A stretch of DNA of 64,000 nucleotides from Candidatus Poribacteria bacterium (lineage in GTDB: Bacteria > Poribacteria > WGA-4E > PCPOR2b), in NCBI GenBank assembly GCA_965218095.1, contig OZ244587.1, positions 6,016,001 to 6,080,000 on the forward strand, written 5' to 3'. The position numbers were made by a program, and so were the translations under genes. This document shows positions 4,799 through 57,428 of the stretch, in pieces. Every line of letters begins with the position of its first letter. Positions within the stretch are counted from its first letter, which is position 1. A model generated the notes under the pieces. That model saw nothing but the letters and a program-made list of their open reading frames with translations, was not told the DNA's origin and did not search any database.

Positions 4799-5458
4799 TT
4801 ATCCAGATTCGTTCTCCACCGTCCGTGGGGCGAGTTCATTCCACACGTCTCCTAGATCATAAACCTGTTTGAACATCGTGTAGATTCCGTCCCACATGGC
4901 ATTCCGTGCATCAGTGGCAGCGTGATTGTCTCCTTCAGCGATAGCCCGCTTGAGTTTGGCGTCTATCTCTTGCTGAACCCGGGCACAGGCCTGGGCAGCT
5001 TGAGCAACGGCTTCGCTGGCATTGACGTGGCGCTCGATGAGCTCCTCAACAGGCGTACTTGTGTCTTCCTCTATGTCGTAGGCGCTAGACGGCATGAACC
5101 GGATCGGGAGTCGCTGCCCGTCCTCGGCGCGCATGGTGTGGGTTGGCTGAATATGGGGGGTAACCGAGAGATACAGCGTCATCGGTGCATCTCCGACAGC
5201 ACGCAGAAGGTGGATCTGGTCGGCTAACGCGACGCACATCTGACCGGAGCCAAGTTCCTGGGTTTCGCCATCAATCTCAAACTCTACCCTCCCTTCCAGG
5301 ACAAGAAAAATCTCATGTCCCAGGTCGTGGCTATGGATCTGGGCAGTTTGACCAGGCTCCATTCGCATAAAGCGGGAACGTATCTGTGGGGTAACAAGGA
5401 CGTTGCGGATGTCGGTTCGGTAGTCATAAATAGCAAAGCTCATGGTTGTTTCCTCCAA
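4799..5458 (-). CDS. Cupin domain protein with helical C-terminal extension
   Basis: HSHDLGHEIFLVLEG ... ADQIH cupin metal motifs. True start may be MSFAIY at 5443. Confidence 0.85.
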   Translation of the reverse strand: MEETTMSFAIYDYRTDIRNVLVTPQIRSRFMRMEPGQTAQIHSHDLGHEIFLVLEGRVEFEIDGETQELGSGQMCVALADQIHLLRAVGDAPMTLYLSVTPHIQPTHTMRAEDGQRLPIRFMPSSAYDIEEDTSTPVEELIERHVNASEAVAQAAQACARVQQEIDAKLKRAIAEGDNHAATDARNAMWDGIYTMFKQVYDLGDVWNELAPRTVENESG

Positions 5459-5567
5459 TTTTCAATATTGGTTGATGATGAGATTCTGAAGATATTCAAA
5501 AATTGACGTAAGTGTACCCAAAATTCGCTGGACAGTCAAGCCCCGATCTCAGATCGGAGTTATCTTT

Positions 5568-5690
5568 AGAGTTACGCACTTCAAATTGAACAAACCGTGT
5601 TGTGCCTACATTTTGAATCCTGAATCCAGGACAAGATGCAAGACACAGGCAGACATAGCTTGAGTCCGTAGAATCAACTGCGTAAGTCCT
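5568..5690. mobile_element. MITE-like element with (A)GGACTTACGCA-type terminal inverted repeats
   Basis: AGAGTTACGCA (5568) and TGCGTAAGTCCT (5679-5690). Interior resembles the copy at 32652-32789. Confidence 0.65.
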
Positions 5691-5702
5691 AATCTTTTTA
5701 TA

Positions 5703-5730
5703 TTGACAACATTTCCCGATTGCGTATAAT
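5703..5730 (+). promoter_or_regulatory. Sigma70-type promoter upstream of the Gfo/Idh/MocA gene
   Basis: TTGACA-N16-TATAAT with perfect hexamers. Confidence 0.7.
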
Positions 5731-5748
5731 GAATGGAAGGAAGCACCA

Positions 5749-5877
5749 CTAGTCATGAAGGGTTAGTAGAGCCTGCCGCTGGCTGGTTCATCTGCAGTTC
5801 GTTCAACCGCAGATGAACGGGCGAGCCGCCCGCTCTACTCCAATAGTCAAAACTAAATTTATCTGATAGTGGACTAG
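5749..5877. repeat. CTAGTC...GACTAG-bounded element containing a GTAG REP pair
   Basis: Nested inverted repeats GTAGAGC/GCTCTAC and GTTCATCTGC/GCAGATGAAC. Confidence 0.55.
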
Positions 5878-5951
5878 AGTAGGATAATGGTAGAGGCGAA
5901 TCGATATTTTCGCTAATCTTGAATGTCAAATTTCATTAAGGAGCATCATCA

Positions 5952-7004
5952 ATGGCAGAGAAGACATACAGAGTCGGCGTGGTCGGCCTAACGGGTATTG
6001 CAGCGAATCGACTGAGTGCAGATGCACGGTCAGTCCTGAACACACCGATGCCGGGATCGCACATCGCGTCTTATGCGGCCCTGCCGCACACGGATTTGGT
6101 CTCCGTCTGCGAGTTGAAAACAGAACTGTTTAACCAGTTTAAGGAACGGTGGGGCGATGTTTGCCCCGATGTGCGAACCTATACGGACTATCGCGAAATG
6201 CTGGGAAAAGAGAACTTGGACATCCTTAGTGTCGTTACCTCCGACAATCGCCACGCGGATATTGTGGTTGACGCCGCAAACGCAGGCGTCAAGGGCATCA
6301 TTTGCGAAAAGCCGCTCGCCACGACCGTGGACGACTGCAACCGCATGATAGCGGCTTGCGAGGAGAATGACGTTCCGCTTTCAGTCGATCATACGCGAAG
6401 GTGGCGTCCTGCCTACCACCGCGGGCGTCAGGCAATCCATGAAGGGTGGATAGGCGGCGTCCGTCGCATCGTGGGTCACATGGCCGGTCCCAGAGCGATG
6501 TTGTTCCGCAATGGCACCCACCTGATTGACGGTGTCTGTTTCTTCGCCGAATCGGCGCCGGGGTGGGTGTTTGCAGAGTTGGACGAAGGCTTTGAGGACT
6601 ATTTCTCCTACCGTGGGGATGGTGGACGTAGTCCAGAAGGCGACCCCGGCGGCAGCGGATATATTCATTTTCAAAACGGAGTGCGAGCTTTCATCAACGG
6701 CTCGAAAGGACAGGTAGGCGGCTTTCGCATCGAAGTCATCGGCGAGGAAGGGCGTGTGGAGGTGGGAAACACCGTGACTTTGTGGACGGAAGGGGGCAAA
6801 TGTGAACAGCTCGACACGCTGCCGTACATGAAAGAAGGTATCACCGCTTGCATTGAGGAACTCATCCGTGTGATGGAGAATGGCGGTGAGCTGCTTTCTC
6901 CCGGATCCGAAGGTAAGAAAGTGATTGAGATCATCGTTGGATTCCTCAAGTCACAAGAGCGTGGAAACGGCCGTGTGGATCTTCCGCTGCCGCCGGGGAA
7001 TTGA
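5952..7004 (+). CDS. Gfo/Idh/MocA family oxidoreductase
   Basis: YRVGVVGL, IICEKPLA, HTRRW, NGTHLID. RBS AAGGAG. Confidence 0.92.
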   Translation: MAEKTYRVGVVGLTGIAANRLSADARSVLNTPMPGSHIASYAALPHTDLVSVCELKTELFNQFKERWGDVCPDVRTYTDYREMLGKENLDILSVVTSDNRHADIVVDAANAGVKGIICEKPLATTVDDCNRMIAACEENDVPLSVDHTRRWRPAYHRGRQAIHEGWIGGVRRIVGHMAGPRAMLFRNGTHLIDGVCFFAESAPGWVFAELDEGFEDYFSYRGDGGRSPEGDPGGSGYIHFQNGVRAFINGSKGQVGGFRIEVIGEEGRVEVGNTVTLWTEGGKCEQLDTLPYMKEGITACIEELIRVMENGGELLSPGSEGKKVIEIIVGFLKSQERGNGRVDLPLPPGN

Positions 7005-53646: not shown

Positions 53647-53769
53647 TTATGGATTACTGTAATTTTCATCAGACTCTACCTCCTCAACCACCGCCGTCAC
53701 CCAATCAAACTGCGGCTTAAGCGCGGGATAAAGATTTCGATAAATCTGATAGTATTCCTCATAGATCTT
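53647..53769 (-). pseudogene. xylB: Detached C-terminus of xylulokinase
   Basis: KIYEEYYQIYRNLYPALKPQF joins in frame to DNVKIY at 55981 when the IS1595 element is removed. Confidence 0.92.
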
Positions 53770-53789
53770 CGCGCTTATAAGGTTTAGGC

Positions 53790-53818
53790 TTGCAAGTTTT
53801 GTGTAAATTTGATACAAT
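53790..53818 (+). promoter_or_regulatory. Transposase promoter overlapping left IR
   Basis: TTGCAA-N17-TACAAT with extended TGn. Confidence 0.65.
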
Positions 53819-53857
53819 ATAGGCATCAAACCCTTATGAATAAAGGAGTTGAGATGA

Positions 53858-54739
53858 ATGAACTTGTTTGATGCTGTAGAACGATTTTCTGACCAAGAGA
53901 GTTGTATTAAACACTTAGAAACTATCCGCTGGGGTGGCAAACCTGAGTGTCCATATTGCGAAAGTAAAAAGGTTGCACCGAAGAATGAAGCTAGCATAAT
54001 TGGTCGTTGGAATTGCCATACTTGTAAGTCAAGTTTCAATGTGTTACAGGGAACGATATTTCAAGGAACACAGATTCCACTTCAGAAGTGGTTTATGGCT
54101 ATCCTGTTAATGAACGATGCGAAGAAAAGCCTATCAAGTTGTCAAATGGCTCGTCATTTGGACTTAACGCAACCCTCAGCTTGGTTCATGATGAAACGAA
54201 TCAGGTCTGAGATGGGTAGAAAGGGCAAGGTTTTACTGAGAGGAATTATTGAATGCGATGAAACCTACGTGGGCGGTAAGCCCCGACGACGAAAAGACAA
54301 GGACGGGAACTTGCCTCCACCGAGCAAGCGAGGTAGAGGCACGAAGAAAACGCCCGTTATCGGTGCTGTTGAACGGGCTGGGAATGTTGTGGCGCGTGTA
54401 GCTACGAGTTTGAGTCGTAAGGGCGTTTTGGGGTTCATCAAAGGCGTTATTGAGAAGCCGAAGGATTCAGTTCTAATGACAGATGAGTTCTCATCGTATG
54501 AGGCGGTTGATGGGCTCATGCCTCACCATGTCATCAGACACAAGAACTGGCAGTACGTGGACGGTAATACCCACACAAACACGATTGAAGGGTTCTGGTC
54601 GCTGGTGAAACGTGCGTTTCATGGTACACATCACCACTACAAGCATGTTTCGCTCTACATCGCTGAGGCGTGTTACAAGTACAACAACCGGAAGAACCGG
54701 AACATCTTCAAGAAGTTTATCAGGGAATGCTTTGTGTAG
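53858..54739 (+). CDS. IS1595 family transposase
   Basis: Zn ribbon CPYC..CHTC, GTIF..T.IPL.KWF, ECDETYVGG, TDE, NTIEGFWSLVKR, Y..E..Y.YN.R. Confidence 0.97.
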   Translation: MNLFDAVERFSDQESCIKHLETIRWGGKPECPYCESKKVAPKNEASIIGRWNCHTCKSSFNVLQGTIFQGTQIPLQKWFMAILLMNDAKKSLSSCQMARHLDLTQPSAWFMMKRIRSEMGRKGKVLLRGIIECDETYVGGKPRRRKDKDGNLPPPSKRGRGTKKTPVIGAVERAGNVVARVATSLSRKGVLGFIKGVIEKPKDSVLMTDEFSSYEAVDGLMPHHVIRHKNWQYVDGNTHTNTIEGFWSLVKRAFHGTHHHYKHVSLYIAEACYKYNNRKNRNIFKKFIRECFV

Positions 54740-54777
54740 GGTGGGAAAACCTCTGGAGACTCCATAGAAGGATTAGA

Positions 54778-54972
54778 TTACACTATTTCCAACCTTTTGA
54801 AAATGGTTGTAATTAGTGTGTAGTCATTTTTAAGTAACTGAATTGCAACTCTTAAATCTTCTACGGTTGCAGTAGAGGTAAATAACCTCTCTTCAATTCG
54901 GTGGGTTTTATCAGCATGTTTTTGTAGATGTTCTTTAACACGTTGAATATCCACCTTCCTTTGTGATGACAT
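54778..54972 (-). CDS. Small hypothetical cargo protein (64 aa)
   Basis: RBS AAAGGAGG. AT-rich and enclosed by an inverted repeat. Confidence 0.65.
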   Translation of the reverse strand: MSSQRKVDIQRVKEHLQKHADKTHRIEERLFTSTATVEDLRVAIQLLKNDYTLITTIFKRLEIV

Positions 54973-55103
54973 AACATCTGCCTCCTTTCTGAGTCATATT
55001 TTCAGAGGTTTTCCCATAAGGGAGTGTCCGGTGGGAGCCGGACACTCTAGCAACAAAATATCAGGGAGTGCTTTGTGTAGCACCCCCTGATATTGCCTAA
55101 GAG

Positions 55104-55214
55104 TTATTGCTTAGGCGTAGCCGTATAAGGACTGCTATACGGCGTTTGATTACCCTTACGTTTAGCGATTTTGAGTACGATAAACGTAAAGGTTTTGCGT
55201 ATTTTTATAAACAC
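55104..55214 (-). CDS. Putative 36-aa basic peptide
   Basis: AAAGGAGG RBS then GTG. MFIKIRKTFTFIVLKIAKRKGNQTPYSSPYTATPKQ, translated by hand. Confidence 0.4.
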   Translation of the reverse strand: MFIKIRKTFTFIVLKIAKRKGNQTPYSSPYTATPKQ

Positions 55215-55341
55215 GATAATCCCTCCTTTCATTGGAATAAGTCGTGATGCAGAGGGTGTTATCAGCAGTTGTCCGTATATGTGGACTTACAAGCGTGCCG
55301 TCTTTACGCCTGTAAGACTTGATGTATTTGATGCGTGGCAT
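55162..55341 (-). CDS. Putative 59-aa basic protein with YRRKDGTLVSPHIRT motif
   Basis: AAAGGAG RBS then ATG. Below the ORF-track cutoff and translated by hand. Confidence 0.6.
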   Translation of the reverse strand: MPRIKYIKSYRRKDGTLVSPHIRTTADNTLCITTYSNERRDYRVYKNTQNLYVYRTQNR

Positions 55342-55406
55342 GGGGGGTCTCCTTTGCCATGTTGTGGCGGTGGGGGTGCTATAACACCCCCTCGCCTGTT
55401 TTATGT

Positions 55407-55847
55407 CTATCTCATGTGCAATCTTCTAGCAACATTTCGGAGGGTTGTTTCGGTTTGCCCAAATCGTTCCTCCATTTGGGCATAACGCCCCTCTATACTA
55501 TCTATTGACTTGATGACTGCTACATGAGTTGCAAGGGTAGTTGTCATGTACCTGTCCATTCTCGTTACTGACTGTTGAAAAGAATCAAGTTTCTTGTCAA
55601 TATCTTCAACAGGTACGGTTTTCTTCGCAGTTGCATCTCTAGTTTTCAGATTCTCTGCGATGTTGGTAAGCTCTACCCTTCTTAAATTGACGACTTCTTC
55701 TTTCAGTTGTTTTGCTTCATCTCTGAAGTCTATGAAGGACTTTCTGATACTATACAAATCGTCACTACTGGGAATGTGTTTCCAAATGAACTTTCCAGCA
55801 GCAATGATAATGAGTATATCCGCTACTACACTAAGAAAATCACTCAT
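55407..55847 (-). CDS. Cargo protein: N-terminal membrane anchor plus coiled coil (146 aa)
   Basis: FLSVVADILIIIAAGKFIW followed by heptad-rich helices. RBS AAAGGA. Confidence 0.75.
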   Translation of the reverse strand: MSDFLSVVADILIIIAAGKFIWKHIPSSDDLYSIRKSFIDFRDEAKQLKEEVVNLRRVELTNIAENLKTRDATAKKTVPVEDIDKKLDSFQQSVTRMDRYMTTTLATHVAVIKSIDSIEGRYAQMEERFGQTETTLRNVARRLHMR

Positions 55848-55931
55848 TGGGGTGTCCTTTACTTTGGCGAGGAAAGGTAAAACAAGCCAACGATTTAATA
55901 AACTTCAGAATCACAGGCTTGTAACACCCCA

Positions 55932-55960
55932 ATAATATCACATATTCAAAGAATCTGCAA
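55932..55960 (-). promoter_or_regulatory. Inward cargo promoter overlapping right IR
   Basis: TTGCAG-N17-TATTAT with extended TGn on the minus strand. Confidence 0.6.
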
Positions 55961-57428
55961 GCCAATTATTTATAAATGCGTAGATCTTTACGTTGTCAGG
56001 AATCGGTTGCGTCGTTGACGTAATCTTGACGATCTCATTCGCCGCGCTCTCAACACTGTCGTAAACTCCCGTGCCGACGCCCGCGAGAATTGCCGCGCCA
56101 AATGCGGGGCCTTCGGCGATGTTGATTGTGACCAACTCGGCGTTATAGACATCGGCTTGGATCTGCCGCCAAAGCGGACTCCGCGCCCCACCGCCGGTGG
56201 CGCAGATCTGCTCGATCGGAACATCCAGTTCACGAATAATCTCCAATGAGTCCCGCAAGACGTAGGCGACGCCCTCCATCACCGATCGAACCAGGTGCGG
56301 CTTGCCGTGCCGTAGTGTCATACCGAAGAACGTCGCTTTGGCATTCGCATCCGCGTGCGGCGTCCGTTCGCCGGTGAGGTACGGCAAGAAAATTAAGCCC
56401 TCGCTGCCGACGGGCGCTTCCGCTGCTTCTCTGGTCAAAATCTCATACGGATCGACGCCCTCGATTTTTGCCGCTGCAACCTCATGGTCACCTAAACTAT
56501 CGCGGAACCAGCGAAATGCCCCCCCGGCTGAAAGCACCACGCCCATCAAATACCATTTATGCGGCGCGGAATGGCAAAAGCTGTGCGCTCGCAAGTTCAA
56601 GTCAACCTTGGCTTCATCGGTATGCGCAACGATTGCCCCTGATGTCCCAACACTCGCTGAAACCCGTCCTGCTTTGACAATCCCGTTGCCGACAGCGCTG
56701 CAAGCGTTGTCCGCCCCGCCCCCAACGACTGACGTTTCCGCCCTGAGTCCCGTCAATTCGGCGACCTCGGCGGTAATCTTTCCGCAGACATCAACCGATT
56801 CGTACACGGGCGGCAGGAGGTCCGAATCGATATCGAGTTTACGCAGCACTTCCTCAGACCAGCGGCGATTCCGCACATCAAACAGGAGCGTCCCTGCGGC
56901 ATCAGAAACCTCCGCGGCGATTTCTCCCGTCAAGCAGAAGCGGACGTAATCTTTTGGGAGGAGTATCGTTGTGGTTTTGTCCAGGACTTCCGGCTCATTA
57001 TCTCGAACCCAGATCGCTTTCGGCGCAGTAAATCCCTCGAGTGCAGGGTTGCATGTGCTTTGTACCAACAGGTTTTCGCCGACAGTCCCTGTGATGTAGC
57101 GGCATTGCTCAGTTGTTCTCACATCGCACCAGAGGATCGCCGGACGCAGCACGCGACGTTCGCCGTCCATCAGCACCAGGCCGTGCATCTGCCCGGAAAG
57201 CCCCAATCCCTTGATCTCGTCAGGCAAAACCTGCGATTCGGCAAGCACCCTTTGGATGGATTTCACTATTGCCTGCCACCAGTCCTCGGAGTCTTGTTCC
57301 GCCCATTTCGGTTGAGGCGTGTGCAGCGGATACTCCTCTAACGCACTCGCGTGGAGTTTACCCGCTTCATCAACGAGGATGGTTTTTGCACCTGTTGTTC
57401 CAACATCAATTCCGATGAGATATGTCAT
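55938..57428 (-). CDS. xylB: Xylulokinase, C-terminally truncated by the transposon
   Basis: GIDVGTT, SGQMHG, LWCD.RT, LPKDY, GGGADN, GTSG, YLTGERTPH, GGGARS. The last 13 aa are IS-derived. Confidence 0.92.
   Translation of the reverse strand: MTYLIGIDVGTTGAKTILVDEAGKLHASALEEYPLHTPQPKWAEQDSEDWWQAIVKSIQRVLAESQVLPDEIKGLGLSGQMHGLVLMDGERRVLRPAILWCDVRTTEQCRYITGTVGENLLVQSTCNPALEGFTAPKAIWVRDNEPEVLDKTTTILLPKDYVRFCLTGEIAAEVSDAAGTLLFDVRNRRWSEEVLRKLDIDSDLLPPVYESVDVCGKITAEVAELTGLRAETSVVGGGADNACSAVGNGIVKAGRVSASVGTSGAIVAHTDEAKVDLNLRAHSFCHSAPHKWYLMGVVLSAGGAFRWFRDSLGDHEVAAAKIEGVDPYEILTREAAEAPVGSEGLIFLPYLTGERTPHADANAKATFFGMTLRHGKPHLVRSVMEGVAYVLRDSLEIIRELDVPIEQICATGGGARSPLWRQIQADVYNAELVTINIAEGPAFGAAILAGVGTGVYDSVESAANEIVKITSTTQPIPDNVKIYAFINNWLADSLNM

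Follow-up and report, generated by a model that had tools for sequence, protein, structure and literature searches.

A unit of 341 bp nested within an insertion sequence (IS) of a sponge-associated poribacterium is a real passenger module that occupies a recurrent entry point beside the transposase gene of its host element. It comprises 319 new bases and a 22-nt duplication, and separates the transposase stop codon from the 3' arm of a conserved hairpin; because a second copy of the gene's last 22 nt accompanies the 319 bp, both the transposase C-terminus and the hairpin are intact. The spot is a recurrent place of cargo pick-up by such elements, since related elements carry other genes or nothing there. 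As to origin, our leading reading, held tentatively and with slightly less than even confidence, is that of a nested passenger module in a transporter IS, which would have arisen when related IS copies recombined, or a template switch took place between them, at the hairpin. The window, by which we mean the whole 64,000-nt stretch of DNA that was analysed, derives from Candidatus Poribacteria bacterium (GTDB lineage Bacteria; Poribacteria; WGA-4E; PCPOR2b; assembly GCA_965218095.1, contig OZ244587.1, positions 6,016,001-6,080,000, forward strand).

Table 1. Features of the insertion sequence and its passenger module, in window coordinates
Feature	Coordinates	Strand	Basis
Target-site duplication, left copy TAGATCTT	53762..53769		nine-copy comparison and empty-target contig joint
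Left terminal inverted repeat CGCGCTTATAAGGTTTAGGCTTGCA	53770..53794	+	nine copies identical from 53770 onward
Promoter-like site TTGCAA-17-TACAAT with TG, upstream of the transposase	53790..53818	+	consensus match only
IS1595-family transposase, 293 aa	53858..54739	+	Pfam and NCBIfam domains
Repeat copy 1 (DR1), last 7 codons and stop of the transposase	54718..54739	+	repeat search
Inserted passenger module, 319 bp, missing in empty relatives	54740..55058		comparison with L076; 9/9 copies
14-bp inverted repeat, left arm TGGGAAAACCTCTG	54742..54755	+	repeat search
64-aa ORF, no known family	54778..54972	-	ORF list; lies between the inverted-repeat arms
14-bp inverted repeat, right arm	55003..55016	-	repeat search
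Perfect 10-bp hairpin GAGTGTCCGG/CCGGACACTC	55022..55047 (arms 55022-55031/55038-55047)		repeat search
Conserved hairpin, spanning the transposase stop codon in empty relatives	55057..55094		folding, covariation
Repeat copy 2 (DR2), 5' arm and loop of the conserved hairpin	55059..55080	+	repeat search
Second small hairpin GCCTAAG/CTTAGGC	55095..55116		sequence reading
59-aa passenger ORF, no family match	55162..55341	-	ORF list
Intergenic hairpin GGCGGTGGGGGTG..CACCCCCTCGCC, core resembling the conserved hairpin	55366..55396		sequence reading, repeat search
146-aa passenger ORF; hydrophobic N-terminus, then a coiled-coil-like stretch	55407..55847	-	ORF list
Conserved right-end region and right terminal inverted repeat	55844..55980		all nine copies diverge past 55980
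Target-site duplication, right copy TAGATCTT	55981..55988		nine-copy comparison and empty-target contig joint

The host of the module, at 53770-55980, is an IS1595-family IS of 2211 bp whose terminal repeats are imperfect. Its ends were placed by comparing its nine copies, and at 18 of the first 25 positions the left end is complementary to the right, an imperfect pairing that BLAST-short missed. The copies are near-identical, with at most one SNP over 2211 bp, and their target duplications are an exact 8 bp in six, 9 bp in two and a 7/8 match in one. An 8-bp target duplication is typical of the IS1595 family, and the element displays both this and terminal inverted repeats. For the copy in the window, the uninterrupted target is represented by a contig joint running from 53761 to 55981 with 8 shared letters (runs X5 and X12). 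The transposase combines an ISXO2-like DDE domain (PF12762, 119.6 bits, E 1.6e-34, cut-off 27) with an N-terminal zinc ribbon (PF12760, 33.7 bits, cut-off 25.4, residues 12-57), and it matches NCBIfam NF033547 at 181.9 bits (cut-off 75). Between it and the right end lie three minus-strand ORFs, identical in all nine copies, as expected of a transporter IS. None of the three gave a match above threshold in Pfam, PHROGs, NCBIfam or PADLOC; the 146-aa ORF shows coiled-coil matches, all of them below threshold. The 319-bp module and the ORFs are present in 9/9 copies, and the whole composite was later transposed as one unit to nine sites. Among 173 genomes of the class the module and its 64-aa ORF are restricted to these copies, and a search of 5.8 billion proteins yielded one homologue of the 64-aa product (P0002, 89% identical).

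The module is recognizable by the direct repeat TATCAGGGAATGCTTTGTGTAG, the two copies of which (54718-54739 and 55059-55080) differ by one mismatch (21/22). There is no third match in the 64-kb window at three or fewer mismatches, and none of 100 shuffles gave any match; the repeat, already pointed out in the original prediction, is hence not expected by chance. Its second copy forms the arm and loop of a 16-nt hairpin, as had also been proposed. The arms, AATATCAGGGAGTGCT and AGCACCCCCTGATATT (55057-55072/55079-55094), are 94% complementary around a 6-nt spacer, and as RNA the hairpin folds at -23.2 kcal/mol (z -6.3), a value matched by none of 200 shuffles. Folding beats shuffles in all eight hairpin contexts (z -2.4 to -6.3) and in none of the four left-copy contexts; the hairpin of L102 is unlike the others and not significant alone (z -1.2). 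In the hairpin alignment 82.5% of cells are paired, compensatory changes occur in 5 of 15 pairs, and the covariation score of 0.207, against 0.122 in shuffles, was reached by none of 500 shuffles; judging from these sequences, the hairpin is under selection. Rfam returned a single match, which at 20.7 bits fell short of the gathering score (72.2). On the minus strand the hairpin of this IS looks terminator-like, with a G+C-rich stem followed by a T run which comes from the end of the insert, and empty relatives have the stem without a following T run. The small GCCTAAG/CTTAGGC hairpin that comes next likewise follows the first hairpin in L076 and in two further elements, ISb and ISc.

Comparison of 12 related elements, of which four are empty, four filled and four without the hairpin, places the module in a series of forms. 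The empty forms are L076, the closest foreign relative (79% amino acid identity), in which the hairpin 3' arm stands directly after the transposase stop, together with L160, L161 and L162; loose contig ends from X6 (one contig) and X12 (three contigs) similarly run from the transposase tail into the stop and 3'-arm-like sequence. In the empty state, which is ancestral, the final codons of the gene double as 5' arm and loop of the hairpin, whose 3' arm comes immediately after the stop. The elements ISb, L159 and L102 carry different inserts at the equivalent spot, each bordered by a copy of its own transposase 3' end. Insert sizes over the four filled elements are 319, about 1735, about 365 and 548 bp, and a comparison of all of them gave weak short matches only, i.e. 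the inserts are mutually unrelated. The tail-copy repeats measure 22 nt (95% identity), 29 nt (93%), 39 nt (95%) and 28 nt (96%), or, expressed as ranges, 22, 28, 29-38 and 39-44 nt, with the 38-nt version 87% identical. The left copy terminates exactly at the stop codon in 4/4 filled elements and the right junction is variable. In the transposase tree the filled elements are spread over three lineages interleaved with empty ones, the four examples including two from one genome that may share one ancestral duplication; the equivalent spot has been filled independently in related elements. The original prediction is thereby supported as regards its unit of about 340 bp, which is bounded by the transposase stop and by a hairpin that in relatives extends across the stop codon. 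It had named a lack of empty or alternative alleles, with absence of the repeat from related elements, as grounds for abandoning it, and both empty forms and other inserts exist.

Wider searches delimit the pattern. Among 53 more distant relatives (34-62% amino acid identity) and L076, a downstream tail copy was found in L102 only (26/28), the best scores of the others being 14-19/28 and control-like. A possible decayed tail copy in L156, located 1297 nt downstream, was discarded, as it falls in an apparent membrane-protein coding region. A degenerate pattern for the tail/3'-arm junction recovered the known sites alone, in three genomes, from the 173 genomes of the class, and its eight matches in the JGI metagenome collection, with a transposase nearby in 0/8, were put down to chance. 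The assembled contigs, which drop rare variants, yielded neither an empty allele nor an excised circle of this IS, and the contigs of runs X1, X5 and X6 all contain the module. Run X12 also has a joint from 54735 to 55038 with 27 letters on one side.

The mechanism that we infer is recombination or template switching, preferred to an att reaction of the integrase type because of the variable repeat length, the 270-nt repeat in ISb, a 3-nt junction microhomology and mosaic ancestry. The ISb repeat (95% identity) surrounds a 981-bp insert, and its overlap with the tail copy at the junction amounts to 3 nt (ACA). The mosaic is seen in the transposase gene, which at the nucleotide level is 78.6% identical to that of ISb against 74.8% for L076, and in the right end, where L076 is 88.7% identical over 133 nt against 81% over 59 nt only for ISb. 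A second breakpoint, at the right edge of the hairpin (55091/55092) in X5 and X6 contigs, likewise speaks for recombination. In the proposed sequence of events, a stall or break at the hairpin would start recombination or template switching between related IS copies. One partner would have had cargo abutting its stop codon, and since the homology of the two partners stops at that codon, the left junction would be fixed. From the second would come the transposase gene end, the hairpin and the right-hand part of the element; the joint would be illegitimate and fall at a varying distance, 22-44 nt, before the stop of this partner, and a dedicated integrase would be unnecessary. Relatives with cargo abutting the stop do exist, e.g. 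a DNA methylase in L077; no donor element with the 319-bp module abutting a stop codon was found. A hairpin like that at 55022..55047, a feature not listed in the original prediction, is located upstream of a small ORF in the right part of ISb and ISc, and this resemblance suggests that the insert came from the IS cargo pool. Several of these observations admit another explanation: the base-exact left junction in 4/4 cases is equally expected from a site-specific reaction, the 3-nt microhomology is a single case that could be chance, and the conservation of the right end could reflect constraint instead. Microhomology-mediated template switching produces templated or duplicative insertions, and the present case resembles these in the variable length of its direct repeats, the junction microhomology and breakpoints at structure-forming sequence; it differs in that the outcome is filtered so that gene end and hairpin survive, and in recurring at one base in a mobile element.

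Site-specific integration, in which circular cassettes carrying the transposase 3' end would enter at the hairpin and rebuild the gene end, is an unlikely alternative. Its core site would be the hairpin (13-nt arms, 8-nt spacer), acted on in trans by a tyrosine-type recombinase or by the transposase. Such a reaction would account for left junctions exactly at the stop codon in 4/4 filled elements, for empty and filled forms at one spot, for a direct repeat of the target at both junctions with an unoccupied site in relatives, and for a hairpin conserved with compensatory changes whose right edge (55091/55092, in X5 and X6 contigs) is a second breakpoint. It would also suit the similarity of the 64-aa ORF to a circular permutation of the 72-aa ORF of L159 (reached by 1 of 10000 shuffles in each direction), a lead only, as the signal is absent with the 72-aa homologues P0005 and P0006 (20 to 323 of 3000 shuffles). 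A tail-like stretch within the 64-aa ORF (26 and 20 of 1000 shuffles) was set aside, being without counterpart in L159 and L102 (211 and 812 of 1000). Against an att reaction, repeats of 22, 28, 29-38 and 39-44 nt lend no support to a constant core; each element has one complete site because the left copy is without the second arm; and the left junction tracks the stop codon rather than hairpin geometry, the loop being 8, 9 or 10 nt. There is, moreover, no end motif common to the inserts and no recombinase ORF in 53770-55980, the insert holding just the 64-aa ORF. The description of the duplication as att-like is unsupported, in view of a repeat length that differs from case to case, a single complete palindrome, an element encoding no recombinase and the 270-nt repeat around another insert in ISb. 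Integrative elements that target the 3' ends of tRNA and tmRNA genes are likewise bordered by a direct repeat of the gene's 3' end, and the module shares with them a gene kept whole, a repeat that stops at the gene end and a displaced partial copy at the far side. It is unlike them in being without an integrase, in size (0.3-1.7 kb), in having a transposase gene as target and in a repeat that varies among closely related events.

Another alternative is an in-place tandem duplication of about 341 bp, reaching from the start of the transposase tail as far as the hairpin that precedes the small ORF, after which the transposase-proximal copy diverged or was overwritten until only the tail remained alike; this, too, we regard as unlikely. 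Both units consist of a small minus-strand ORF with a strong ribosome-binding site and an upstream hairpin, ISb has a clear duplication of 270 nt, and an in-register patch (54896-54931 and 55247-55282) is 72% identical at a spacing of 351 against 341, its local score being reached by 19 of 1000 shuffles. The units are, however, unalignable outside the patch, the 64-aa and 59-aa proteins are unrelated (BLAST, E 1e-3), and the left unit has neither the 3' arm nor the second hairpin. The divergence required would be very uneven (95% identity in 22 nt, near-random elsewhere), and the duplication would not account for the fact that ISb, L159 and L102 have unrelated inserts.

An inverted repeat around the 64-aa ORF, likewise noted beforehand and not expected by chance, raises the question of whether the inner 275 bp (54742-55016) moved on their own. 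The repeat TGGGAAAACCTCTG is perfect (14/14) and extended by GACTC (54757-54761) and GAGTC (54991-54995); its two occurrences are the sole matches in the window at one or no mismatch, and none of 100 shuffles gave two. On this alternative, which we consider improbable, the 275 bp would be a non-autonomous mobile cassette of the MITE or MIC type using the 14-bp terminal inverted repeats, and the 22-nt repeat would stem from a separate, earlier event. The perfect repeat at both ends of an ORF-bearing unit fits this, and the flanks TAGGG/TAAGG agree at 4/5 positions like an imperfect target duplication, a weak match. Genome-wide the 14-mer occurs nine times per strand, every time within the nine IS copies, and 29 other sites sharing its first 10 bases have unrelated contexts; thus no other element has such ends. 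A cognate transposase was not found, and the arms fit equally an RNA stem closing the cassette transcript and covering its ribosome-binding site: in the minus-strand RNA they close the entire cassette (-82.7 kcal/mol, z -5.5). Relative to MITEs and to the mobile insertion cassettes (MICs) as mentioned in PMC3129680, the unit is comparably short, encloses a passenger ORF in terminal inverted repeats and encodes no transposase, and it differs by having no independent copies, no clear target duplication and a repeat that doubles as an RNA stem.

Pairing of the cargo RNA with the end of the transposase mRNA had been offered as a further possibility. A minus-strand transcript through 55059-55080 would indeed be complementary to the transposase mRNA tail at 21/22 positions, and pairing may occur as a by-product. 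That no insertion took place, with the second copy serving antisense control, is highly improbable: the empty/filled series already disfavours it and is left unexplained by it, empty relatives having a single copy, at the stop, and filled relatives unrelated inserts. For antisense control the second copy would be needless, because convergent transcripts already overlap in empty elements, and that copy, together with a 3' arm of its own, has been conserved as a hairpin.

Integrons hold cassette arrays with attC hairpins, an IntI gene and RYYYAAC/GTTRRRY core sites. The right part of the IS resembles such arrays in its small, mostly promoterless ORF modules split by imperfect hairpins, in entry beside a fixed site and in one outward promoter region for the whole array. 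Unlike integrons, it has no IntI ORF or domain in 53770-55980 and no RYYYAAC/GTTRRRY at the hairpin borders, and its flanking repeat is 22-44 nt of coding sequence. That the stop-codon hairpin is a dedicated docking site, making the IS clade an integron-like cassette platform, strikes us as rather unlikely. Small circular cassettes would here be loaded beside the transposase stop by a hairpin-reading enzyme (the transposase or a host recombinase), each loading leaving a hairpin copy, such that the right part of the IS would be an array built up one loading at a time; traces of this would be the 64-aa/72-aa pair of permuted ORFs and the stem, similar to the hairpin, that separates the 59-aa and 146-aa ORFs.

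The closest counterparts are the IS1595-family transporter insertion sequences, or tIS (Siguier, Gagnevin and Chandler 2009, as cited in PMC3129680 and PMC7986276). The present IS has their zinc-ribbon and DDE type of transposase as well as terminal inverted repeats and a target duplication of 8 bp, and like them it carries passengers behind the transposase gene which are mobilized along with the element. It differs in that a duplicate of the transposase 3' end borders the passenger module and that entry recurs at a conserved hairpin overlapping the stop codon. The literature searched, in which the 2009 paper is represented through citations, contains no account of such a module or hairpin entry point, and it describes the carriage of passengers by tIS and not the route of their acquisition.

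To our knowledge, the way in which transporter insertion sequences acquire passenger genes has not been worked out. The IS clade offers a natural series of empty, filled and differently filled forms at one base-precise spot, and the conserved hairpin together with the diagnostic duplication makes cargo acquisition testable. An active IS, with nine identical copies, tolerates a transposase gene end that has lost the hairpin. Were a dedicated enzyme at work, the clade would represent a new system of cassette capture; otherwise it would be a clean example of hairpin-linked templated insertion shaping the mobile elements of sponge symbionts.

The 293-aa ORF encodes an IS1595-family transposase (PF12762, PF12760; NF033547 at 181.9 bits), and the genome holds nine copies of the 2211-bp unit around it, two being identical and seven carrying one SNP. 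It is bounded by imperfect inverted repeats that match at 18 of 25 positions, and the target duplications beside them are of exactly 8 bp at six of the nine copies, of 9 bp at two and with a 7/8 match at one; contigs of two other sequencing runs preserve the unoccupied target site, linking 53761 to 55981 with 8 letters shared. As the transposase is accompanied by three ORFs on the minus strand (64, 59 and 146 aa), for which searches of Pfam, PHROGs, NCBIfam and PADLOC found no family, the element is a transporter IS, a kind already known in the IS1595 family (PMC3129680, PMC7986276). Its insertion lies within the 3' end of a 496-aa ORF that resembles a sugar kinase and, judged by sequence, possibly a xylulokinase; the final 14 codons of the interrupted ORF (55938-55980) are IS-derived, the native C-terminus resumes in frame from 53769 downwards, and the uninterrupted allele is found in runs X5 and X12.

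The original prediction described a 22-nt repeat of the transposase 3' end, a hairpin and an inverted repeat enclosing the 64-aa ORF, and all three were recovered at the same coordinates and against shuffle controls (see table). The repeat copies are identical at 21 of 22 positions and are the only matches in the 64-kb window at up to three mismatches, with no match in any shuffle; the hairpin RNA folds at -23.2 kcal/mol (z -6.3). This architecture lies wholly inside the IS, and all nine copies have it.

Features of the IS and inserts of the filled elements
Feature	Position	Extent or insert	Pairing or tail copy
IS, copy in the window	53770-55980	2211 bp	
Left copy of the 22-nt repeat	54718-54739	final seven codons and stop of the 293-aa ORF	
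Right (tail) copy of the 22-nt repeat	55059-55080	5' arm and loop of the hairpin	
Hairpin arms	55057-55072 and 55079-55094		15/16 positions paired
Inverted repeat around the 64-aa ORF	54742-54755 and 55003-55016	14 bp	perfect
64-aa ORF	54778-54972, minus strand		
Hairpin separating the 59-aa ORF from the 146-aa ORF	55366-55396		
Right-end region	55844-55975		
Kinase-like ORF	55938-57428 and 53647-53769, minus strand	496 aa	
Insert of this IS	54740-55058	319 bp	22 nt
Insert of ISb, second element of the same genome, 79% nt	in L021	~1735 bp, four ORFs on the plus strand	29 nt (93%) or 38 nt (87%)
ISb 270-nt repeat	L021 1478-1747 and 2729-2998 (genome 5095300-5099400)		95%
ISc, third element	L022, genome 2550900-2556000, minus strand		
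Insert of L159		~365 bp	39 nt at 95%, by reading 44 nt
Insert of L102		548 bp	28 nt at 96%

Related elements supplied the evidence that the prediction had called decisive for an insertion at the hairpin with duplication, namely empty forms and other inserts at the same spot. The comparison set comprised twelve elements from the window's genome and seven others, with transposase genes 57-95% identical pairwise at the nucleotide level; relatives are recorded from Candidatus Poribacteria and other sponge-associated lineages. Four are empty, with the hairpin 3' arm directly behind the stop codon: L076 (the same as L053), at 79% aa the nearest foreign relative, whose 1687 bp form a complete IS that matches this one in layout save for the 64-aa module; L160 and L161, two copies in one genome; and L162. 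Loose contig ends in runs X6 (one) and X12 (three) likewise pass from the transposase tail through the stop into 3'-arm-like sequence. Another four (this IS, ISb, L159 and L102) are filled, the left copy terminating exactly at the stop codon in each and the tail copy resembling the tail of the element that carries it, while their inserts are mutually unrelated except for weak short matches. The remaining four have neither hairpin nor tail copy. In the transposase-gene tree the filled elements fall into three lineages interleaved with empty ones, and among 53 more distant relatives the duplication occurs in L102 only. Pairing of the cargo RNA with the transposase mRNA end, offered by the prediction as the alternative, leaves this empty and filled series unexplained, and pure antisense control thus has very little probability as the sole account.

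The cargo entry point is therefore recurrent and, on its left side, base-precise, whereas the right junction varies between 22 and 44 nt upstream of the stop. We tentatively put forward that a stall or break at the hairpin is mended with the help of a related IS that has cargo behind its stop, by template switching or by copying; since the homology between the partners would end at the stop codon, the left junction would be fixed without any enzyme recognising a site. If the original template were then rejoined illegitimately, a few tens of bases further upstream, the duplication would result, and selection would retain only products with both transposase and hairpin intact. Cargo abutting the stop is found in L077, where a DNA methylase gene (PF01555, 131 bits; 4879-6489) begins at the transposase stop. 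The 'att-like' mechanism of the prediction is unsupported: an integrase-type reaction would equally produce an exact left junction, but the repeat length is variable, the left junction has no second arm, no recombinase is encoded within the IS and the junction tracks the stop codon while the loop ranges over 8-10 nt, making it unlikely. Tandem duplication of a 341-bp unit in place could explain an in-register patch (54896-54931 versus 55247-55282; 19 of 1000 shuffles), but the units do not otherwise align and we consider it improbable. That the inner 275 bp is a MITE or MIC, as its 14-bp ends might suggest, seems quite improbable given that it has no further copies in the genome, that its flanks match at only 4 of 5 positions and that the arms also close the minus-strand transcript in a fold covering its ribosome-binding site (-82.7 kcal/mol, z -5.5).

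A gene beginning at the transposase stop is carried by many relatives that are more distant, at 50-62% aa, and come from Chloroflexota, Latescibacterota, Nitrosomonadaceae and further sponge-associated MAGs; that of L077 was identified by its domain match, and in the others the DNA reads as a similar start. The hairpin-less relative L156 (1361-1560; G027:C5:325000-332000) has repeated GGCGGCGGCTTATGGCGGCGGC and GCCGCCATAAG units right behind the stop, a stretch that looks structured.

Folding is stronger than in shuffles for each of the eight hairpin contexts (z -2.4 to -6.3) and for none of the four left-copy contexts; taken by itself the L102 hairpin, which differs from the rest, is not significant (z -1.2). 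In the alignment of the eight hairpins 82.5% of cells are paired, compensatory changes affect 5 of 15 pairs, and the covariation score exceeds 500 of 500 shuffles and every slid control; in L162 the 5' arm encodes its arginine by CGA in place of AGG, and the 3' arm is altered to match. Judged from these sequence comparisons, the structure is under selection despite half of it being coding. Read on the minus strand, the hairpin of this IS together with the T run from the insert end looks like an intrinsic terminator, but relatives lack the T run, so termination is probably not what it does in general. The stop-codon hairpin has GGGNGTGCT...CACCCCCT in common with the hairpin that separates the 59-aa ORF from the 146-aa ORF; similar GGGTG..CACCC hairpins stand at the corresponding place in L076, L159, L102 and ISb, and 18 of the 126 loose matches to the motif in this genome fall inside the IS copies, whose share of the genome is 0.4%.

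The module recurs in contigs of three runs: X1, over 1565 nt without a difference; X5, over 422 nt with two differences; and X6, over 1644 nt. No empty allele or excised circle of this IS was seen in the contigs, which hide rare forms. Among 173 genomes of the class the 64-aa ORF is confined to these nine copies, with one outside homologue at 89% identity, and a metagenome search for the tail/3'-arm junction pattern returned chance matches only. The ORF aligns with the 72-aa ORF of the L159 insert (L159:5183-5401) as a circular permutation, at a score reached by 1 of 10000 shuffles in each direction; two homologues of the 72-aa protein did not give this signal.

In other samples a second breakpoint lies where the hairpin has its right foot (55091/55092): in X5 one contig ends there and one joint runs thence to 55872, and an X6 contig has 110 other letters in place of 55092-55260. 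Sequence identities show an apparently mosaic ancestry: the transposase gene of this IS resembles ISb (78.6%) more than L076 (74.8%), and its right end resembles L076 (88.7% over 133 nt) more than ISb (81% over 59 nt). The right-end region could be a conserved leader RNA; it has no match in Rfam. Within it ATTGGGGTGT and ACACCCCAAT, separated by about 75 nt, are complementary at long range, and on the minus strand their pairing would occlude the 146-aa ORF's start codon.

In ISb and ISc the small ORF of the right part is preceded by a hairpin akin to the one upstream of the 64-aa ORF. In ISb the 270-nt repeat flanks a 981-bp insert, its end overlapping the tail copy by three bases. Each of its copies is an 83-aa ORF, and between them lies the gene for a 293-aa repeat protein of ~66-nt units, with relatives in both the L162 and the L102 cargo; a frameshift splits the transposase of ISb into ORFs of 209 aa and 74 aa. 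ISc no longer has a transposase; it keeps a frameshifted 293-aa gene and the tail hairpin, together with the small ORF, other ORFs and the right inverted repeat, and an ORF upstream of it reads as truncated and sigma-factor-like.

Our literature search, which did not extend to the key 2009 transporter-IS paper, returned no account of passenger genes flanked by a duplicated end of the transposase gene. The nine near-identical copies show that the transposase functions without a hairpin at its own gene end, and the IS is a transporter IS with a defined, recurrent cargo slot.
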